A model generated the notes under the pieces. It was not told where the DNA came from. It did no database searches and saw only the letters and a list, made by a program, of their open reading frames with translations. A stretch of 64,000 nucleotides of DNA from Bacilli bacterium. GTDB taxonomy: Bacteria > Bacillota_I > Bacilli_A > RFN20 > CAG-826. The stretch lies in contig JAGAYY010000025.1 in NCBI GenBank assembly GCA_017940265.1, forward strand, positions 256,711-320,710. Reading direction: 5' to 3'. Numbering within the stretch: the first letter of the stretch is position 1; every line of letters begins with the position of its first letter. Position numbers and translations under genes: made by a program. Of this stretch, positions 2,540-44,839 are shown in pieces.

Positions 2540-4102
2540 TTATTTAACAACAACGCCAGTATCGACTGAACCATCACCCTCGATCTTAACATTACGATCG
2601 GTTTTAGCAGCGATAGTATTGGTCTTAAGAATGTCGGCCATATCAACACCAGTCACGTCCTTCATAACATCCATGGTCTGTTTAATTACAGAAGGAACAT
2701 TACCTGCAAATCCTGCAGCCTCAGTTCCAGTAGTACCATAAATCTTGATATCACCAATCTTACCCATTGGTTCAGCAATACTTCGTGCAACCTCTGGCAT
2801 AACCTTTTCTGTCATCTTGGTTAGAATATCAATTACAGCGACATGACCATATTTCTCATAGGCTTCTGCTTTCTTCTGCATAGCTTGAGCTTCTGCCTCA
2901 CCCTTAGCCAGGATACCGGCTGCTTCTGCCTCTAATCCTGCTTGTTTAGCCGCAGCCTCAGCTTTACCCTTCGCTTCAATACCTGCAGCTTCCTGAAGAG
3001 CAGAATACTTATCAGCATCAGCTTTAACCTGAATAGCTTTAGCCTCCTGTTCAGCTAAATATGCCTTAGCTTCAGCCTCACGCTTCTGTTGTTCAAGTTT
3101 TGCCTGAGCATCAATCTCTGTCTGATATTTCTTAGCATCAGAGTTTACTTGAGTTTGATACTTTTCAGCATCGGCTTGAGCATTAACCTGGGCCTTAAGT
3201 TCATTTTGCTTAATTTTGATCTTTTCCTCAGAAAGAACTTGTTCACGCTTAGTTTGTTCAATCTGGGCATCAACAGTTTTAGTGTTGATAGTTTTTTGCT
3301 GTTCCTGCTTCTGAATTTCATATGCAGCATCAGCTTCAGCTTTCTTTGTGTCAGAGACCTTTTTAAGATCTGCTTTTTTAATTTCAAGCTCATTATTACG
3401 TTCAGCAATCTCAGTCTCTGTCTTAACTCTCACATCATTTGCTGTTTTCTTTGCTTCCTGTTCAGCAACGGCAATGTCACGTTCTGCATTTGCTTTGGTA
3501 ATAGCTGCATTCTTTCGGATAGCATAAGTATTATCAGCACCTAAGTTCTCGATAAGTTTATTTGAATCAGTTATGTTCTGAATATTACAAGAAATAACTT
3601 CAAGACCAAGTTTTGCCATATCCTTAGCAGCTTTTGCCTGAATTTCATCTGAGAACTTATCCCTGTCCGTGATTAAATTTTGGAGGGTTATGGCGCCAAC
3701 CACCTCTCTCATATTTCCCTCTAATGAATCCTTAATCTCAGAAGCAATCTGGGATGGATTCATGTTAAGAAAGTTTTTAGCGGCTAATCTTGTACCAGCT
3801 CCATCAGGTAAAGCTCTTACTTTGCACACAGCATCAACCATAACATCAATAAAATCATGCGTTGGTACTGGGATAGAAGTTTTTACATCCACAGAAACCT
3901 GGCCAAGAAACACCTTATCAAGACGTTCCAAGATAGGAATCTTAAATCCACCTGTACCAATAAGAACTCGAGGTTCTTTTTTAAGACCTGATAAAATGTA
4001 GGCATAAGATGGAGGAGCCTTAACATACATACTGAAGGCTAGTACCACCAATAGAACTACAACAATTGCAATTCCAATTAATACTAAATTTGAAGTAAAC
4101 AT
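2540..4102 (-). CDS. flotillin-like SPFH/Band-7 membrane protein
   Basis: 520 aa. N-terminal TM helix, SPFH core (..ILSGLKKEPRVLIGTGGFKIPILERL..GLEVISCNIQNITD..), long Ala/Glu/Lys/Gln coiled coil (AEAEAKA.., GLEAEAAGILAKGEAEAQA), C-terminal flotillin-type tail. Confidence 0.9.
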   Translation of the reverse strand: MFTSNLVLIGIAIVVVLLVVLAFSMYVKAPPSYAYILSGLKKEPRVLIGTGGFKIPILERLDKVFLGQVSVDVKTSIPVPTHDFIDVMVDAVCKVRALPDGAGTRLAAKNFLNMNPSQIASEIKDSLEGNMREVVGAITLQNLITDRDKFSDEIQAKAAKDMAKLGLEVISCNIQNITDSNKLIENLGADNTYAIRKNAAITKANAERDIAVAEQEAKKTANDVRVKTETEIAERNNELEIKKADLKKVSDTKKAEADAAYEIQKQEQQKTINTKTVDAQIEQTKREQVLSEEKIKIKQNELKAQVNAQADAEKYQTQVNSDAKKYQTEIDAQAKLEQQKREAEAKAYLAEQEAKAIQVKADADKYSALQEAAGIEAKGKAEAAAKQAGLEAEAAGILAKGEAEAQAMQKKAEAYEKYGHVAVIDILTKMTEKVMPEVARSIAEPMGKIGDIKIYGTTGTEAAGFAGNVPSVIKQTMDVMKDVTGVDMADILKTNTIAAKTDRNVKIEGDGSVDTGVVVK

Positions 4103-10575: not shown

Positions 10576-10822
10576 TGATGAGCCATTCCTTAAGGGTTTT
10601 CTTGAATTCTCCGTTTGTATCATTGACTAAATCATACAGAAAACCGCTCGGAATATAAGCTATCTGTCTGAAAAAGCATCTTCCATCTGCCATCATCCTG
10701 TAGTCACCGTATAAGTCTCTTGGTTTCTTTTCCAGGAGGCCAAGAGTCTTCACACACAACATATGATCATAGCCTATTAAGGTAACCGATATACCACTAG
10801 TCCCTGTCATCTTAATTCTCAT
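10535..10822 (-). CDS. hypothetical protein
   Basis: 95-aa ORF. Confidence 0.5.
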   Translation of the reverse strand: MRIKMTGTSGISVTLIGYDHMLCVKTLGLLEKKPRDLYGDYRMMADGRCFFRQIAYIPSGFLYDLVNDTNGEFKKTLKEWLINAFGKVEELRSRS

Positions 10823-11310
10823 AGGTCATTAACATCTATGTAGTCAATACCATAGTTTTCCGCACACTTCAGATCAGAGTCAGAGAATTGGCCTGGTTTA
10901 CCTGAGGCATCACCAATCATTAACATCTCGGGTTTAGAAACTACAATTCCTAAGGTTGGTAGAATCTTAAGACAGGTATGATCCAACATCCCCGGGTTTG
11001 GTTTTCGATAAGGATCAGTCTTGGAGTTTCTTGGACAATATACCCATCGGACTGGAACCCCTAGGTACTCTTCGAAGGCTCTCACCAGGTACTCGATCTT
11101 GCCCTTAACCCAATTTTCATGATTAACTTTACCGATTGCTATACCTCCCTGATTTGTTACTATAACCAATACTTCAGGACTCATTTCCCTGATTTTATCC
11201 AAGACATCAAACTTAATTTTCATATCCCAAATACCCTTAGGGAATGAACTACCAGTGAGGGTATCTATCAAAGTACCGTCTAGGTCCGCAAATACAACTT
11301 TCTTTTTCAT
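10819..11310 (-). CDS. HAD-superfamily (subfamily IIIA-type) phosphatase, polynucleotide-3'-phosphatase/GmhB-like
   Basis: Motif I FADLDGTL, motif II VTNQGGI, Lys motif YRKPNPGML, motif IV IGDASG..DSD. Confidence 0.8.
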   Translation of the reverse strand: MKKKVVFADLDGTLIDTLTGSSFPKGIWDMKIKFDVLDKIREMSPEVLVIVTNQGGIAIGKVNHENWVKGKIEYLVRAFEEYLGVPVRWVYCPRNSKTDPYRKPNPGMLDHTCLKILPTLGIVVSKPEMLMIGDASGKPGQFSDSDLKCAENYGIDYIDVNDL

Positions 11311-14546: not shown

Positions 14547-16589
14547 TCATTTTCTTGATATTATTTCAAATCCATCTTTAACTCCAGAATCAGTAATTAC
14601 CTTAACTACTTTGAGATTAAAATAGTTTTCTAAATTTTTTGCCTTAGCGACTGATTTATACCCTAATTTTTCATAGATATCCTTTAGTGTAGATTTTATA
14701 TAAACATAAGAATATCTACTACCAACCTCAAAAGTAGAATACACAAGGTCCTCTAATTCTTCCTGCTTTTCTGAATTTTGACTTATTCTATTCCACTCTC
14801 GTTCTATATCAGCTTCTAGATATTTGAGCGCTTTCATCCGTTCTGTTCCGAAAGCTAGGTAATAATCCTTAAATTTACCAGGGAGTCTATCTAAGAACTT
14901 TCCCATATTCTCGGGATCAAGACTAACCTCTATATTATGTATAAACTTAATTTTATCTGGAAATGTCGTTAGTCCATTGAATTCCACTAATAAATCTGAT
15001 ATTCTACTATCCTGGGCTAGGAATCCAGCTTCTCCTAAGGCATTATACACACTGAATCTATCTTTATAATCTACTTGCTGGATATCGAAAGCTCTCATCT
15101 CCGATACCAACATTAGGTTATTAAATACCGGGAGAAGATCAGAACCCGCATGATGATTAACGGCAACATAGTCATTTAAGTAGTGAGATAACTTAATTTC
15201 ACTCTCGTATTTCTTAGCCAATGAATGTCTTTTAGTAGGGTCAGCATCTCTGTATATGTCTAAGAGGTCATAACTAGCTTGTTTTTTCTCTTCTAGGCGT
15301 TTATCAAAAACCTCCTTCGTCTGTTCCTCCTCTGTTGTTTTAACTACCAGATAAGCAGAATTCTTCCAAGGGTTAATATCGAGTCTTTGTCTACCCATAA
15401 TCTGTTCTAAGTCCATACTAATATCAACACTAAGACAATCTATATTACTATCACAGAAAATGAAAGTTCTAGCATTGGTACTATAGAAATCAGCACCGAG
15501 GTATACTGTTCTAGTACAAAAAGTAAACATCTTATGAGGTTCACCTTGTTTAGGAATAGAGCCAATAGCATCAATAGTCCCTGCCTTAGCCCTTTTCATT
15601 GACGGTCGGCCTAATTCGGAAAGAGCCTTATTGAATGCCTGCTTAATTAATTTATTATTTTCGAGAGTCTTAGCACATAGAACGTTACATTGATCTGGAG
15701 TTAATCTATTGTTGATGATAGCCCTAACAATAGCTTTAACTGAATTAACATATATAACTGCCTCCTTAGATACTACTTCATAGGGTCGGCCATCTTCTCC
15801 TATATATCTTCTCCTCTCATACTCCCCACTCAGGTATGGTTGGATTATTTTATTGATCTCTTCATTCAGTCCACGCTTAGTATATCTAACCTCAATCTTC
15901 GGACTAATAACTCGATCCGGATCTTCTTTACTCCAATTAAGTTCATAGTATGGAAGATTCTTAAATTCATCCAGCATATCTAAGTATTCATCTAACATAG
16001 GAGTAGCGGATACAAAGCAAACCTTCTGAATACCTAGGAGCTGATATAAGAGTTCAAGTTCTGTATGAGATTTGAAGCGTGAATCAATGAAGATGCTTTG
16101 AAACTCATCCACTACTATATAGAAATCTTCTAAGACTCCGAGTTCAACTAATACTTCCTTGATATGACGGAATGAATCATAGGTAACTAGAATCTTAGCA
16201 GCTTTTCTATTAAATCTGCATTTCCGGACATAATCTCTGGCTCTATCCTTAAACTCCAAGACTCTTTCAATACTTGGGACTGGTGGATCTACTATTTTTG
16301 CACCTTTAGTCATAGTACTAATATCCTTGTCATATCCAACAACGGATTCAATGTCATTTCTTGCATAGAATACTTCTCCTTGATGTTGATCCTCCTTATT
16401 CTCTAAGAGAAACCGGCGGGGACTACATACGACAACATTAAGTCCGCACCTGATACAATACTCTGTGAAACCGCAACCAGTCAGTGTCTTGTTCAAAATA
16501 TGAGGAGAGTTAAAGTTTTCTAATCCATATTCACTCCACTCTCCTATGTACCTTATTCCTTTTGGTACTACAATCTCTTTTCTATTCAT
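14547..16589 (-). CDS. SF2 helicase-like protein, paralog 1 (Walker A Lys replaced)
   Basis: Motif order GCGFTEY (I, no Lys), CSPRRFLLEN (Ia), VVDEFQS (II), VSATP (III), QIMGRQR (VI). The 718-aa track ORF uses a TTG at 16703. The ATG at 16589 matches the paralog N-terminus, and the 16590-16703 stretch is conserved as DNA with a stop-containing stretch upstream of paralog 2. Confidence 0.8.
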   Translation of the reverse strand: MNRKEIVVPKGIRYIGEWSEYGLENFNSPHILNKTLTGCGFTEYCIRCGLNVVVCSPRRFLLENKEDQHQGEVFYARNDIESVVGYDKDISTMTKGAKIVDPPVPSIERVLEFKDRARDYVRKCRFNRKAAKILVTYDSFRHIKEVLVELGVLEDFYIVVDEFQSIFIDSRFKSHTELELLYQLLGIQKVCFVSATPMLDEYLDMLDEFKNLPYYELNWSKEDPDRVISPKIEVRYTKRGLNEEINKIIQPYLSGEYERRRYIGEDGRPYEVVSKEAVIYVNSVKAIVRAIINNRLTPDQCNVLCAKTLENNKLIKQAFNKALSELGRPSMKRAKAGTIDAIGSIPKQGEPHKMFTFCTRTVYLGADFYSTNARTFIFCDSNIDCLSVDISMDLEQIMGRQRLDINPWKNSAYLVVKTTEEEQTKEVFDKRLEEKKQASYDLLDIYRDADPTKRHSLAKKYESEIKLSHYLNDYVAVNHHAGSDLLPVFNNLMLVSEMRAFDIQQVDYKDRFSVYNALGEAGFLAQDSRISDLLVEFNGLTTFPDKIKFIHNIEVSLDPENMGKFLDRLPGKFKDYYLAFGTERMKALKYLEADIEREWNRISQNSEKQEELEDLVYSTFEVGSRYSYVYIKSTLKDIYEKLGYKSVAKAKNLENYFNLKVVKVITDSGVKDGFEIISRK

Positions 16590-17098
16590 GTTTTTAAATT
16601 TTATTATTCTATCCACCCTTGTATTTTTGGGCGGAATCAGGTCTTTATTCGATAGTAAGGATTTGAGAGCTTCTGAAGTGTGAAACTTCGATTTTATTTT
16701 CAATTTTCAAACATATCCTTATATGAATGTTTGGGTTCAAAAAAGTCGAAAAAATGTATAGGTTATATTGTTAAAACAAAAGGAATCTCGCCTTGGCTTT
16801 CGCCTCGGCTCGAGTCCATTCAAGGGATCTTCGGCTAAAGCCTTCGATCACATTCGGTCGGTTCCCTCCCTCACCTTGAATATAGTATTAGGTCTTGTAA
16901 TATCCTTTACTTCAAGTCTTTGAAGTAAAGATTCTGGTCCGGGCAACGACGAGCTTTAGCGAGGAGGGGCTAGGTGGGCGGACCAGAATGACGAAGTCTT
17001 TGATAACCCTAGAATCATATCAAATAAGTTATCATAGATAACACCCTAGATTCATTTATATACAAAGACAAATACTATAAGCAGAAGCTCTCAACTTC
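16590..17098 (-). promoter_or_regulatory. long structured upstream/leader region of SF2-like paralog 1
   Basis: No credible ORF. GC-rich island 16781-16990 with perfect 11-bp hairpins (16905-16930 and 16931-16989). Block 16655-16686 is conserved with 42708-42737. Confidence 0.45.
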
Positions 17099-18452: not shown

Positions 18453-19559
18453 TCATACTATTTCCCATTTAACTTCTTGTGCTTCGTAATATTCTGGGAG
18501 GACTAGAGAAGATATCATTTTATCTATTACCTCTTCCGGAACAATAGCCTCCCTGGAATGATTTCTCTTAGTTTGTTCTTCGGGCGTAGTCTCCAGATAT
18601 ATGATTTTGACTCTTGCCTTATAGGATTCGAAAAGATCTATTAGTTGTCCTCTCGACCTACCTAAGTTGGTTGCATTCCATACGAAGGATTCTTTTCTCC
18701 TTAGGTATTCTTTTGCTTTCTCCTTGGCGGCCTGAATTATTTTACCGTCGATCGAACCCGGCTTAAGTCCTAATTCCTCCCTAATCTGATCCAAGGAAAT
18801 TACGGCCAGATCAGAGTTCTTCTTTATCCACGTGTCCTTGCCTGTTCCCGGAAGACCACACATAAGGATTACTTCTCCCCAGGTGTCATCAAATAAGGAA
18901 GGTCTAGAACAATTCCCCGTTCCGAATCCTAGGAACTTATGATCTGAATAAGGATCTTCTCCAAGGTGTCCCATCCCCTCTAGTAATCCTTCATCTTCTG
19001 CCAAGACCCTGAAATATTCAATATTTTCCAAGGAAACTTCTTTATCGGCGCAGATTCTTCCTTGGATATCTGCTTTCGAGAGTCTATACAAGAGATCTAA
19101 ATTAAAATCTGGGCTGAGGAATCCGGTAGCAGCAATCCGATAGAGTTTAGGAATTCCGTCACTATCGGTTAAAGCATGTGGAGGAAAACCATGATACCTA
19201 ACGAGAGAGACAACCGCTTCTCTGTACAGCATAGCCTCTTTAGTTCCTACTAATCCGAACTTTTTCCATAATATCTCACGGGTCATTTTTGCACCGATGA
19301 TAGAGTGATTTGGACATACTATATCACCGTTGCCTAGGTCTTGAGTGGTTCTGATTTTCCCGATATCATGAAGAAGAGCTGCAATCCTGAGGATAGATTC
19401 CTGATATTCGGTAAGGCCAATAGTGTCTAGAGAATCATAGACTAGTCTGGTATGTGTATAGACATCTCCTTCTCCATGGTATTTCTTGTCTTGTGGAGTT
19501 TCTTTCAAGGAGTCGACCAGACCGGATAAACAATTCTCTTCTATTTCCTTATACTTCAT
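18453..19559 (-). CDS. HD-Pnk type RNA/DNA end-healing enzyme (N-terminal HD phosphoesterase + C-terminal P-loop polynucleotide kinase)
   Basis: HD domain: HGEGDVYTHT.., LLHDIGK. Kinase: ILMCGLPGTGKDTWI. Start taken at ATG 19559 (longest ORF starts at 19601). Confidence 0.8.
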   Translation of the reverse strand: MKYKEIEENCLSGLVDSLKETPQDKKYHGEGDVYTHTRLVYDSLDTIGLTEYQESILRIAALLHDIGKIRTTQDLGNGDIVCPNHSIIGAKMTREILWKKFGLVGTKEAMLYREAVVSLVRYHGFPPHALTDSDGIPKLYRIAATGFLSPDFNLDLLYRLSKADIQGRICADKEVSLENIEYFRVLAEDEGLLEGMGHLGEDPYSDHKFLGFGTGNCSRPSLFDDTWGEVILMCGLPGTGKDTWIKKNSDLAVISLDQIREELGLKPGSIDGKIIQAAKEKAKEYLRRKESFVWNATNLGRSRGQLIDLFESYKARVKIIYLETTPEEQTKRNHSREAIVPEEVIDKMISSLVLPEYYEAQEVKWEIV

Positions 19560-20235
19560 ACACAAGTTTAGCTCGTTTCCAGTTTTTAGCCCAGAAGACA
19601 TCGGTTCTAACGTGATGAGGTCTTACGTACTTGCAAACATGGCGTGGAAATTCGTCCCCAAGACCAAATCCTTCGGTAGTTCTCATTACCACGCCCTCTT
19701 TCTCGATTCCGTAGGTTGAAGGATATTTCATTTGTTCGAGAATAAGTTCTTTAATTTGTTCCTCTGATTCTGCTACTCCTCTCCAAAGAACTGGGACATG
19801 TGGTATTTGTAAGAGCTCAGAGAATTCGGTCACTTCATCCCAAGAATACCATCTCTTATTATCCCTTACGGCGAAGAGATGATAGTAGGAAGGAAGTTTA
19901 TTGTACTCGATTGAATGAATTCCGAAGAGGTTTTCACCATAGATTAGTTCATCTTCACCAATCAAGTCCTTAAGGGTCCAGAATATACCACCAGTTCCCC
20001 ACATATTCCTAGACCAATCCGAGCGTGTGGGGGCGGCATGGGATCTGGCATAAACATCAAAGTGTGAACAAGACGTATTTTCTCCATCTAATTTCTCGGT
20101 TAGGACTATTTCTTTTCCTCTATAATCCTCAAACCAGCCATCATGGAGTAGTCTGTCATCTGATGTAGTCCCAGGTGAAAATGGGACATGATACGTTCTA
20201 GGATACTTCTGATTATCTATTATTTCTTTTTCCAT
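19549..20235 (-). CDS. ATP-dependent RNA ligase (RNA_ligase / nucleotidyltransferase-only type)
   Basis: YPRTYHVPFSPG.., motif I EKLDGEN, motif III IYGENLFG, motif IV EGVVMR, motif V KYVR. Confidence 0.85.
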   Translation of the reverse strand: MEKEIIDNQKYPRTYHVPFSPGTTSDDRLLHDGWFEDYRGKEIVLTEKLDGENTSCSHFDVYARSHAAPTRSDWSRNMWGTGGIFWTLKDLIGEDELIYGENLFGIHSIEYNKLPSYYHLFAVRDNKRWYSWDEVTEFSELLQIPHVPVLWRGVAESEEQIKELILEQMKYPSTYGIEKEGVVMRTTEGFGLGDEFPRHVCKYVRPHHVRTDVFWAKNWKRAKLVYEV

Positions 20236-42498: not shown

Positions 42499-42820
42499 TT
42501 ACAAGATGATAGATTTCCATTTTCTCTCGCGCCAGGGGAACCGGAAAGGGAGCCCCTTAATGCCTATCTGCCGATGACGGCATTAAGGCCGCTACGCGGA
42601 AGGCTAAAGCCATTGAACTCCTCTCCCTAATTCCAATTTTTCTAATTTTTTGGTGCCAAAATAATATATTAAACCAATTACAGTAAAAATTGCGTTATAA
42701 ATAGAAATTTCACGCCTCAGAGAAGCTCAAATCCTAATATGTGATGTAGAGAATCGGGCTTCCCCGATTCCCTTGGCCGGTTTATTGGCCAAGGAATTAA
42801 CTTTAAATATAAAACATATT
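42499..42820 (+). promoter_or_regulatory. structured upstream/leader region of SF2-like paralog 2
   Basis: GC-rich island with a 10-bp hairpin (42555-64/42579-88). Block 42708-42737 is conserved with 16655-16686. Two perfect 8-bp hairpins (42751-70, 42771-94) lie just before ATG 42821. Confidence 0.45.
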
Positions 42821-44839
42821 ATGGATATAGTTAAATTAGAAAATGGAAAATCTTTAATAAGAGTTCCAGAAAATATAAGGTACATGAATGATTGGAAAGA
42901 ATTTGATTTCGATTTATTTCATGGACCTTATATTATTGACAAACAAATCCCAGGTTGCGGATTTACAGAGTATTGTCTTACTTCAGGAGATAATCTTATA
43001 CTATGTTCTCCTCGTAAGATTCTTCTAGAAAATAAAGCTAATCAACATCTAGGGGAAGTCTATTATGCTAAGAATGAGATGGAAACGGATCTTAGTATTG
43101 ATAGAGATTCTACTAAAAAGGTTAAGAAGTTATCTAGGGAAACTAAGAAAGAGGATATACATGCTGTTCTTGAAGCTATCGAAAAAATGTATAAAGGGTT
43201 GGATGAGTACATAGAAGATAGAATTAAGAATAGAAAACCTATTAAAATATTGGTTACCTATGATTCTTTCAAACATATCAAGAATTATCTTTTAAAAAGA
43301 AGTAGTCCAGAGCTAGATATCCTAGGATCATTTAAAATAGTGATAGATGAATTCCAGTCGGTTTTTGTAGATTCACACTTTAAACCAACAGTAGAATTAG
43401 ATTTTGTTAATCAACTTTTGGGGTTATCTAATAACATTTGTTTTGTCTCAGCGACTCCTATGCTAGATAAATACCTTAAGCAGGTTGATTATTTCAAGGA
43501 TCTACCATATTTTGAATTTGATTGGGAAACTTTAGATCCGGGCAGAGTTATTAAGCCTGAACTTAAGGTTAGAAAAGAAAGATCTGTTTATGGTAAAGCA
43601 GTTAATATTATTCAAGAGTACCTAGATGGGAAATTTGCTGTTCTTGCAGATCCTACCTCAGGTAAATTAGTTAAAAGTACAGAGGCCGTATTTTATGTAA
43701 ATTCTGTCTTAGGAATTATTAAGATAATAGGAAAAGCTGGTCTTACACCAGATCAGGTTAATATTTTATGTTCTAATACTCCACAAAATCAGAAGAAGAT
43801 TAGAAAAATGTTAGGCAAGGGATTTGTGATTGGTTCAGTTCCCTTGAAAGGGCAGCCACATAAGATGTTTACATTCTGTACTCGAACTGTTTACTTAGGA
43901 GCAGACTTCTACTCAATGTGTGCTAGAACCTTTATATTTAGTGATGCTAATGTGGACTCTATGGCTATTGATATTTCTCTCGACTTACCACAGATTCTAG
44001 GTCGACAGAGGCGTATAGAAAATCCATGGAAGAATCATGCAGAATTCTACTTCAAAACTATTGGAAAAACTAAAGAAGAAACTATAGAAATATTTAGTAA
44101 ACGTCTTGATGAAAAACTAAGGGAAACCTATAGACTTCTGAGAGCTTTTGAAGGAGCAGTAGAGGAAGATAAATCGGCACTATTGAGGAAATATACAAAA
44201 GATATTGCTTCATCTAATTATATGGATGATTATGTATCGATAAGTTTTGTCAATGGTGAGAAAATACCAGTTAAGAACAATCTTGTATACATCTCTGAAC
44301 AACGAGCTTATGAAATACAGCAAATAGATTATAAAGATAGATTCTCAGTTTTTAGTTCTATACAGAAAGAAGGATTGAAACTAGATAGATTAAGTAAAGC
44401 AATAGGAAGGTTAAGGGAGACTTCTATTCCTTTCTCAGCTCGACTAAAATATTTATGTGAATCTACCGAGTATTCTGATGAGGAAAAGAAAATAATAGCG
44501 CAACAAGCTTCGGAGAGCTTTGATAGATATTATAATCTCCTAGGACCTGAAAGATGTAAGGCGCTAAGATATAATATTACTGATCTTAAAAAAGAAATAG
44601 CCGATATTTCTATACCAAAAGAAAAGATAAGTCAAACTTTTCAGAGTAATTTTTTGGTTGGTGCTAGATATTCTAATGTTCAGGCTAAAGAAATTATTAG
44701 AAAAATTTATTCTGAACTTGGTATGAATAAATCACCTAAGGCAACTGACCTAAACAACTATTTTGTTTTTAAGAAAGTAAAATTTCCTGATTCAACCGGA
44801 AAAATGATAAACGGTATTGAAATTCTAGGAACTAAATAA
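42821..44839 (+). CDS. SF2 helicase-like protein, paralog 2 (Walker A Lys replaced)
   Basis: PGCGFTEY, CSPRKILLEN, VIDEFQS, VSATP, QILGRQR. Collinear with 14547-16589. The track start at 42773 is a TTG inside a hairpin. Confidence 0.8.
   Translation: MDIVKLENGKSLIRVPENIRYMNDWKEFDFDLFHGPYIIDKQIPGCGFTEYCLTSGDNLILCSPRKILLENKANQHLGEVYYAKNEMETDLSIDRDSTKKVKKLSRETKKEDIHAVLEAIEKMYKGLDEYIEDRIKNRKPIKILVTYDSFKHIKNYLLKRSSPELDILGSFKIVIDEFQSVFVDSHFKPTVELDFVNQLLGLSNNICFVSATPMLDKYLKQVDYFKDLPYFEFDWETLDPGRVIKPELKVRKERSVYGKAVNIIQEYLDGKFAVLADPTSGKLVKSTEAVFYVNSVLGIIKIIGKAGLTPDQVNILCSNTPQNQKKIRKMLGKGFVIGSVPLKGQPHKMFTFCTRTVYLGADFYSMCARTFIFSDANVDSMAIDISLDLPQILGRQRRIENPWKNHAEFYFKTIGKTKEETIEIFSKRLDEKLRETYRLLRAFEGAVEEDKSALLRKYTKDIASSNYMDDYVSISFVNGEKIPVKNNLVYISEQRAYEIQQIDYKDRFSVFSSIQKEGLKLDRLSKAIGRLRETSIPFSARLKYLCESTEYSDEEKKIIAQQASESFDRYYNLLGPERCKALRYNITDLKKEIADISIPKEKISQTFQSNFLVGARYSNVQAKEIIRKIYSELGMNKSPKATDLNNYFVFKKVKFPDSTGKMINGIEILGTK

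Follow-up and report, generated by a model that had tools for sequence, protein, structure and literature searches.

Two helicase-like genes in a jumbo phage

The window analysed here is a 64,000-nucleotide stretch of contig JAGAYY010000025.1 (assembly GCA_017940265.1; positions 256,711 to 320,710 of the forward strand). It covers only part of the genome of a jumbo phage that is represented by contigs of 268–394 kb from ruminant gut metagenomes. Within it lie two diverged copies of a gene for a superfamily 2 (SF2) helicase-like protein, in both of which phenylalanine occupies the place of the catalytic lysine of motif I (Walker A). The open reading frames (ORFs) extend from 14547 to 16703 on the minus strand (copy 1) and from 42773 to 44839 on the plus strand (copy 2), each with a TTG start. 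We prefer the ATG codons at 16589 and 42821, which had also been chosen in a first-pass annotation of the window, because homologues begin with MNK or MNR and because, in copy 1, the stretch added by the TTG start covers part of the upstream leader in which a nucleotide motif is conserved. The resulting 672-residue form of copy 2 is also the version recorded in public contigs. The genes and their motifs are as follows:

14547–16589, minus strand: copy 1 coding sequence, 680 amino acids (ATG at 16589, stop codon at 14547–14549)
16464–16490, minus strand: copy 1 motif I, KTLTGCGFT, with invariant K34, G38 and G40, F41 at the Walker lysine position, and T42
16383–16424, minus strand: copy 1 motif Ia region, SPRRFLLENKEDQH, with invariant N64-K65
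16098–16109, minus strand: copy 1 motif II (Walker B), DEFQ
15999–16010, minus strand: copy 1 motif III, SATP
15384–15404, minus strand: copy 1 motif VI, QIMGRQR
14550–15317, minus strand: copy 1 C-terminal domain, 256 amino acids, helical, ending in a strand-helix-helix-hairpin unit
42821–44839, plus strand: copy 2 coding sequence, 672 amino acids (ATG at 42821)
42941–42967, plus strand: copy 2 motif I, KQIPGCGFT
43346–43357, plus strand: copy 2 motif II, DEFQ
43448–43459, plus strand: copy 2 motif III, SATP
43991–44011, plus strand: copy 2 motif VI, QILGRQR

The two products share 42% identity over about 700 residues (BLASTP, E-value 1e-176), in keeping with the earlier description of two related, diverged copies. 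Their arrangement was misread in the same annotation, which placed them on opposite genome arms and facing one another. In fact, they flank a strand switch near 29.4 kb and are transcribed divergently, and the window is only part of a phage genome that holds at least four paralogues. On the 268 kb contig ERZ27256935 k141_328788, the single contig with all four mapped, these are found at about 129, 157, 199 and 243 kb, spaced 28–44 kb apart, and jumbo-phage contigs of 330–400 kb in IMG/VR carry three or more diverged paralogues each. A non-coding gap of 320–560 bp precedes each paralogue, and each heads its own transcription unit. Segmental duplication including the neighbouring genes was considered and rejected, as the helicase-like gene alone is duplicated.

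Both copies contain the SF2 motifs in canonical order, namely I (K-x3-GCGFT), Ia (SPRxxLLENKxxQH), Ib (TYDS), II (DEFQ), III (SATP), V (TRTVYLGADF) and VI (QI[ML]GRQR), which agrees with the order first noticed for motifs Ia, II, III and VI. When set against the SF2 consensus, motifs II (D-E-x-x), III ([ST]-A-T) and VI (Q-x-x-G-R-x-x-R) conform throughout. The exception is motif I (A/G-x-x-G-x-G-K-[ST]), for which copy 1 reads T-L-T-G-C-G-F-T. The motif coordinates place phenylalanine at the Walker lysine position in both copies, as had been claimed. A search for a true P-loop elsewhere in the proteins found none: copy 1 contains neither GK[ST] nor G-x4-G-K-[ST] at any position, and the only two GK[ST] occurrences in copy 2 fall outside the conserved motifs.

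The assignment is backed by the predicted structure. An AlphaFold model built on a 59-sequence alignment (predicted local distance difference test score, pLDDT, 87.6; predicted template modelling score, pTM, 0.81) consists of two RecA-like domains, spanning residues ~1–225 and ~226–420 of copy 1, and a C-terminal domain (425–680). In this model, GCGF forms the loop between strand 1 (residues 30–33) and helix 1 (41–47), which is the canonical P-loop position. Foldseek comparison with the PDB returned SF2 helicases with probability 1.0, including Pol theta helicase, WRN, Brr2, UL9 of herpes simplex virus 1 (HSV-1), Hel308 and RecQ; model and search together thus support the helicase-like fold proposed from the motifs. 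Many of the top PDB matches are RNA helicases (Brr2, Mtr4, Dbp10). In a viral fold library, the best match was a 606-residue protein (E-value 4.6e-36) that, going by its size, is probably an Edwardsiella phage homologue and likely a member of the same family. The next named matches were mostly replication origin-binding proteins and helicase-primases of nucleocytoplasmic large DNA viruses (NCLDV) and herpesviruses.

The C-terminal 256 residues were modelled with confidence (pLDDT 94.1), and a fold search with this domain against the PDB gave no significant match, only weak winged-helix-like ones with E-values above 0.5. In several phages, a stand-alone ORF matching just the C-terminal 150–290 residues lies ~300–650 nucleotides downstream of the full-length gene (loci L018, L019, L022, L051, L076, L080, L082 and L085, and L078 with two such ORFs), and the C-terminal domain is therefore an independent module. 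The same ORFs account for the surplus length of IMG/VR matches of ~3 kb: an intron or intein was considered for these and rejected, as the additional sequence belongs to a second ORF further downstream that is related to the C-terminal domain only.

A phage family without the Walker A lysine

The missing lysine extends far beyond the window. More than 4,700 relatives of the window protein were found among clusters formed at 90% identity, none of them with a precomputed Pfam domain, and all of the top 120 relatives carry the motif TGCG[FY]TE. An exhaustive profile search of 1.84 billion representatives yielded 4,210 clusters at E ≤ 0.001, of which 1,419 remained at E ≤ 1e-30 and roughly 1,100 scored between 1e-3 and 1e-10, so that the family comprises ~4,200 clusters at 50% identity. 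IMG/VR contributes at least 545 loci. Among 203 diverse members taken for a residue census, the Walker lysine position is filled by F (88), G (68), Y (28), A (9), M (6) or I (1), with a gap in three, and never by lysine or arginine; no homologue with a normal GxGK[ST] occurred in this sample. The remainder of the catalytic site is maintained almost without exception. The Walker B pair D161/E162 is present in 202 of the 203 proteins and motif VI Q396/R400/R402 in every one, T42 (the Walker A threonine) has a conservation of 0.96, A195-T196, T359, G365 and D367 reach ~1.0, and D389 stands at 0.99. Two lysines are equally constant: K34, seven residues upstream of the Walker lysine position, was found in 200 of 200 proteins, and K65 in all census members.

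The family falls into clade A, with F, Y or M at the Walker lysine position together with DEFQ, and clade B, with G or A together with DEYH. The active-site residues are kept between the clades at ~20% identity. A distant branch at a similar level (~20% identity) includes DAL_143 of Psychrobacter phage D'Alembert, annotated as a 'DEAD-like helicase', and an Edwardsiella phage protein, with xGxG[GA][TS] as motif I. At the level of sequence, the lysine-less motif I, K-x3-G-x-G-[F/Y/G/A/M]-[T/S], is thus a hallmark of the family and not a local oddity. The family is phage-restricted and essentially absent from cellular genomes: 185,579 species genomes gave three matches, all on contigs of 5–28 kb in metagenome-assembled genomes.

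Existing domain collections do not capture these proteins. The helicase-like domain of the window proteins was unmatched in scans with Pfam, PHROGs, NCBIfam and PADLOC. The DEAD model PF00270 did not match the window proteins, and it matched a few relatives below threshold, at best with 25.5 bits against a cut-off of 26; the three such matches examined in detail begin at profile position 42–44, past the P-loop. Sequence searches of the PDB with the single protein and with a 59-sequence profile gave chance matches alone, and literature searches turned up no description of a lysine-less phage SF2 family. The family is therefore a large annotation gap, being multi-copy in gut and rumen jumbo phages and lacking a Pfam, PHROG or NCBIfam model.

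A functional pointer comes from three metagenomic proteins, P0230, P0340 and P0334, in each of which the helicase-like domain is independently fused to an archaeo-eukaryotic primase (AEP) domain (PF08800; one also with PriCT). The primase part of P0230 was the sole match of the family in the PHROG, NCBIfam and PADLOC scans. Both domain orders occur, the primase being C-terminal in P0230 and P0340 and N-terminal in P0334. All three fusions carry KKxxGCGAT and nowhere contain a canonical Walker A, making the lysine-less domain their sole NTPase (nucleoside triphosphatase) module. These fusions connect the family with the priming and replication of DNA, and the fold neighbours point the same way.

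Structured leaders and gene neighbourhoods

Most of the helicase-like genes examined also have a structured element in the non-coding gap upstream. A GC-rich, apparently structured segment was seen upstream of nearly all of the ~70 further jumbo-phage loci checked. The main parts of the leader are:

16590–17095, minus strand: copy 1 leader, non-coding, with helix arms at 17082–17095 and 16663–16675 and GC-rich hairpins at 16780–16990
16895–16990, minus strand: two-hairpin GC-rich module H1-H2 of copy 1, conserved in the leaders of three of this phage's four paralogues
42499–42820, plus strand: copy 2 leader, non-coding, with a GC-rich folded segment at 42520–42640 and a conserved 3' leader motif at 42715–42733
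L008, 7450–7962, and L010, 7516–7966: leaders at related loci
L025–L091 (IMG/VR): leaders ~60–450 nucleotides upstream of the gene
L008, 7545–7638, and L010, 7598–7691: H1-H2 modules
L094, 119–200, and L095, 9–90: H1-H2 modules on the opposite strand

In copy 1, the arms of a long-range helix, GTTGAGAGCTTCTG and CAGAAGCTCTCAA, lie 406 nucleotides apart and bracket the whole leader region. The arms differ among the paralogues of this phage, yet are 89–100% complementary, and the counterpart pairs upstream of P0006 and P0103 are altered in sequence. No clear 5' partner of this helix was found in the copy 2 leader. Alignable leaders were recovered for 48 IMG/VR copies, from which 13 distinct arm pairs form the same helix. 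Its sequence is unrelated to that of the window, and its 3' strand ends 62–79 nucleotides before the ATG, as compared to 74 in the window. The pairing is kept by two sequence types. Overall, the helix covaries in 16 copies, and its alternation between G-U and A-U pairs points to an RNA of the sense strand. A hairpin just before the ATG also appears to covary (GGATTC/GAATC versus GAACTC/GAGTT), as judged from the alignment by eye. We take the region as a structured 5' leader of 350–500 nucleotides, which the covarying helix would define in the 16 copies, and which probably controls expression of the helicase-like gene. The leader is a candidate new RNA class: the window and seven related loci gave no Rfam match at gathering score, and at E ≤ 10 the copy 1 leader had chance-level matches alone.

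Within the leader, the H1-H2 module has a 37-nucleotide loop (CCCACCTAGCCCCTCCTC...CTTCG..) that is nearly identical across three copies, and compensatory changes are seen at four of ten base pairs in H1 and at two in H2. A covariance model (R1) located H1-H2 in this phage lineage alone, upstream of helicase-like paralogues; an nhmmer search found nothing further, and an exact-pattern scan of IMG/VR gave chance matches alone. In L094 and L095, H1-H2 is inverted relative to the gene and the other leader parts keep their orientation, which argues that the module may be a separate unit. An invertible promoter segment, with inversion of the whole leader, is for the same reason unsupported. A perfect palindrome, GTTATCTATGATAAC, at 17016–17030 (minus strand) and at ~7563–7577 of L010 is conserved upstream of H1-H2 in two leaders and may be a protein-binding site. 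The metagenomic contigs of L092, L094 and L095 end 246–404 nucleotides upstream of the gene; such breaks are frequent and consistent with a leader that, as a within-genome repeat, interrupts assembly. In the distant 90 kb phages, the upstream region is long, AT-rich and filled with repeats, and there is no GC-rich structured element.

As to the surrounding genes, RNA-repair-like functions are encoded 2–3 kb upstream of copy 1, namely an RNA ligase (19549–20235, minus strand) and an HD-domain polynucleotide kinase (18453–19601, minus strand). The RNA-repair-like set around copy 1 also includes a PNK3P phosphatase-like protein (10819–11310, minus strand). The D'Alembert homologue likewise has an RNA ligase gene two genes away, and RNA-repair genes are not nearby in the case of the other three paralogues of the window phage. 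In several phages, a free-standing endonuclease-type gene (T5orf172/GIY-YIG-like or HNH) lies directly downstream of the helicase-like gene (L093, 3245–4258; L094, 2489–3484; L096, 3374–4402; L001, 5899–6642; L124, from 2881 onwards). This may reflect the usual pattern of homing endonucleases beside conserved genes, replication genes included. A conserved downstream partner was rejected: three relatives have a T5orf172-like protein after the gene, and the window has none there. Elsewhere in the window, positions 2540–4102 (minus strand) encode a 520-residue protein with SPFH/Band 7 and flotillin domains, which is unusual in a phage.

Function and comparison with known systems

The best-supported reading of these data is that the proteins are NTP-driven, replication-associated motors with a rewired P-loop rather than dead enzymes; we place its probability at somewhat less than one half (about 0.45). 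A working NTPase is favoured because the magnesium ligand, the acidic pair and both arginine fingers stay invariant at ~20% identity, which would not be expected of a dead site. The glycine-rich loop and the threonine would bind phosphate and magnesium as usual, and the positive charge of the Walker lysine would be supplied by another residue. The leading candidate is K34, since it is invariant and situated where strand 1 passes into the P-loop; K65, also invariant, is a less likely source of the charge. Such a motor would probably help to initiate or prime the replication of phage DNA, as a helicase of the origin-binding type or as the partner of a primase, with the family-specific C-terminal domain providing target recognition. 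Each copy is a transcription unit by itself, and most of the jumbo-phage copies examined are preceded by the structured 5' leader as a probable control element. The retained NTPase activity, the role of K34, the replication function and the regulatory role of the leader are inferred; the data themselves show the fold, the motifs, the conservation across the family, the primase fusions, the multiple copies and the leader covariation. The first-pass annotation had read the substitution as selected and possibly ATP-independent. Selection is borne out by the family-wide conservation, and a pseudo-enzyme is possible and not favoured, given that the other catalytic residues are kept. Its candidate role as a DNA-binding initiator is still plausible in view of the origin-binding-protein-like fold neighbours and the primase fusions.

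Several points weigh against an active replication motor. In typical SF2 enzymes, the residue seven positions before the Walker lysine is an ordinary part of the strand. It is not obvious how one and the same compensating side chain could be compatible with both the bulky F or Y of clade A and the G or A of clade B. The replication analogy rests on fold ranking and fusions, because profiles show no link to UL9 or to D2 of phage T5, and three to four or more paralogues per genome would be unusual for a replication initiator. The structured RNA and the nearby RNA ligase and polynucleotide kinase genes would fit an RNA-directed role equally well. Finally, exchange of the Walker lysine in T5 D2 (K405E) abolishes ATPase and unwinding activity (PMC3632103). 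A bolder version of the active-motor reading, which strikes us as rather improbable, would see a new class of active SF2 motors, their catalytic lysine relocated to the start of the P-loop (K34) from its usual place at the end, with each jumbo-phage paralogue and its leader acting as a self-contained module, either replicator and initiator or protein-RNA pair, placed several times along the genome.

The most serious competitor, though in our view an unlikely one, is a pseudo-helicase that does not hydrolyse NTP and acts as an ATP-independent nucleic-acid clamp, as an origin or operator binder or as a scaffold, having kept its catalytic residues for binding without turnover. The helicase-like domain of XPF and the C-terminal cassette of Brr2 offer parallels. 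Absence of the Walker lysine from all 203 members speaks for this proposal, and an aromatic residue could occupy part of the nucleotide pocket. However, known dead helicase modules usually erode several motifs rather than one, and the retention of the threonine, the D-E pair, motif III and both motif VI arginines at ~20% identity is hard to explain without chemistry. Moreover, a pseudo-helicase would leave the three primase fusions with an inert domain as their only NTPase module. Further points in its favour come from other proteins: one phage SF2 helicase that has been characterised loses its ATPase activity along with this lysine (PMC3632103), UL9 together with ICP8 can open its origin in the absence of nucleotide (cited in PMC3632103), and Brr2, among the top fold matches, has a C-terminal cassette that is inactive yet binds nucleotide (PMC8220420).

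Less probable still is an RNA-directed protein that binds or remodels the structured RNA upstream of its own gene, for autoregulation or within a ribonucleoprotein, or that works with the phage RNA-repair enzymes. The near-constant GC-rich element, the helix covarying in 16 copies and the G-U pairs of a sense-strand RNA all suit such a role, as do the RNA-repair genes near copy 1, the RNA ligase gene near the D'Alembert homologue and the many RNA helicases among the fold matches. On the other hand, the primase fusions point toward DNA replication, the distant 90 kb phages lack the structured element, the other three paralogues have no RNA-repair genes nearby, and a structured leader would equally be predicted by ordinary cis-regulation. 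We regard as very unlikely an SF2-type transcription or termination factor, comparable in role to poxvirus NPH-I or the small subunit of VETF, with one paralogue serving each genome block. Several paralogues 28–70 kb apart, each heading a transcription unit, would fit this picture, and the D'Alembert gene has the terminal repeat and an array of promoter-like repeats beside it, a position expected of an early gene; yet beyond the generic SF2 core there is no link in fold or sequence to the NPH-I or VETF families, and the primase fusions are left unexplained. A mistaken motif assignment, with GCGFT outside the P-loop and a normal ATP site elsewhere, is refuted as far as sequence and model allow, by the lack of a canonical motif in copy 1 and of any but off-motif GK[ST] in copy 2, by the predicted position of GCGF exactly between strand 1 and helix 1 and by the canonical order I-Ia-Ib-II-III-V-VI.

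Few residues in biology are as conserved as the Walker A lysine, and mutating it is the standard way to kill a helicase. Here, a phage-wide family of thousands of sequence clusters has dispensed with it, and the remaining catalytic site is under strict selection. If NTP hydrolysis is retained, as the active-motor reading proposes, the family would represent a new way of building a P-loop active site; if it has been lost, no larger group of pseudo-enzymes with a helicase fold and a seemingly intact site would be known.

Among characterised proteins, the closest resemblance is to the UL9-type origin-binding SF2 helicases (PF02399: HSV-1 UL9, NCLDV proteins and phage T5 D2). These likewise combine two RecA-like domains with a family-specific C-terminal domain, are viral, and are associated with primases and replication. 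They account for most of the best named matches in the viral fold library, and UL9 is among the best PDB matches. An HNH endonuclease gene follows the T5 D2 gene, as endonuclease genes follow several genes of the present family. The two groups differ in that UL9 and D2 have a canonical Walker A, on which the activity of D2 depends, the K405E protein being inactive (PMC3632103), and in that the C-terminal domain described here has no significant fold match in the PDB. In addition, the family proteins did not match PF02399 (Herpes_ori_bp) in Pfam scans, the family profile A2 did not match UL9 in a search of PDB sequences, and hhalign of A2 against T5 D2 gave a probability of 0.2. Remote SF2-like helicases that are specific to viruses and plasmids and fused to AEP primases have been predicted as pVOG1685 and pVOG9714 (Kazlauskas et al., 2018, PMC5862659). 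By their description they are alike in the remote SF2 similarity, the primase fusion and UL9 as the nearest characterised relative; the passages describing them make no mention of a lost Walker lysine (PMC5862659).

The family shares with the XPF/ERCC4 helicase-like domain and with the C-terminal cassette of Brr2, a top fold match, an SF2 fold deviating from the canonical ATPase. Inactive modules of this type usually show several degraded motifs. In contrast to these modules, which have lost activity, the phage family lacks the lysine alone and keeps every other catalytic residue invariant or almost so. The deviant Walker A of ParA, MinD and NifH (K-G-G-x-x-G-K-[ST]) likewise has an additional conserved lysine where the P-loop begins. 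These proteins belong to another P-loop class, keep the canonical lysine, and have their signature lysine five residues upstream (seven in the phage family), from where it acts across the dimer. A precedent for relocation comes from WNK kinases, which have moved their catalytic lysine, and from protein kinases in general, which pair a lysine-free glycine loop with a lysine from another strand. The fold of these kinases is unrelated and the analogy is one of mechanism alone; if K34 does take over the missing charge, the phage proteins would have arrived at a comparable arrangement, a lysine-free glycine loop served by a lysine from elsewhere, within the SF2 fold.

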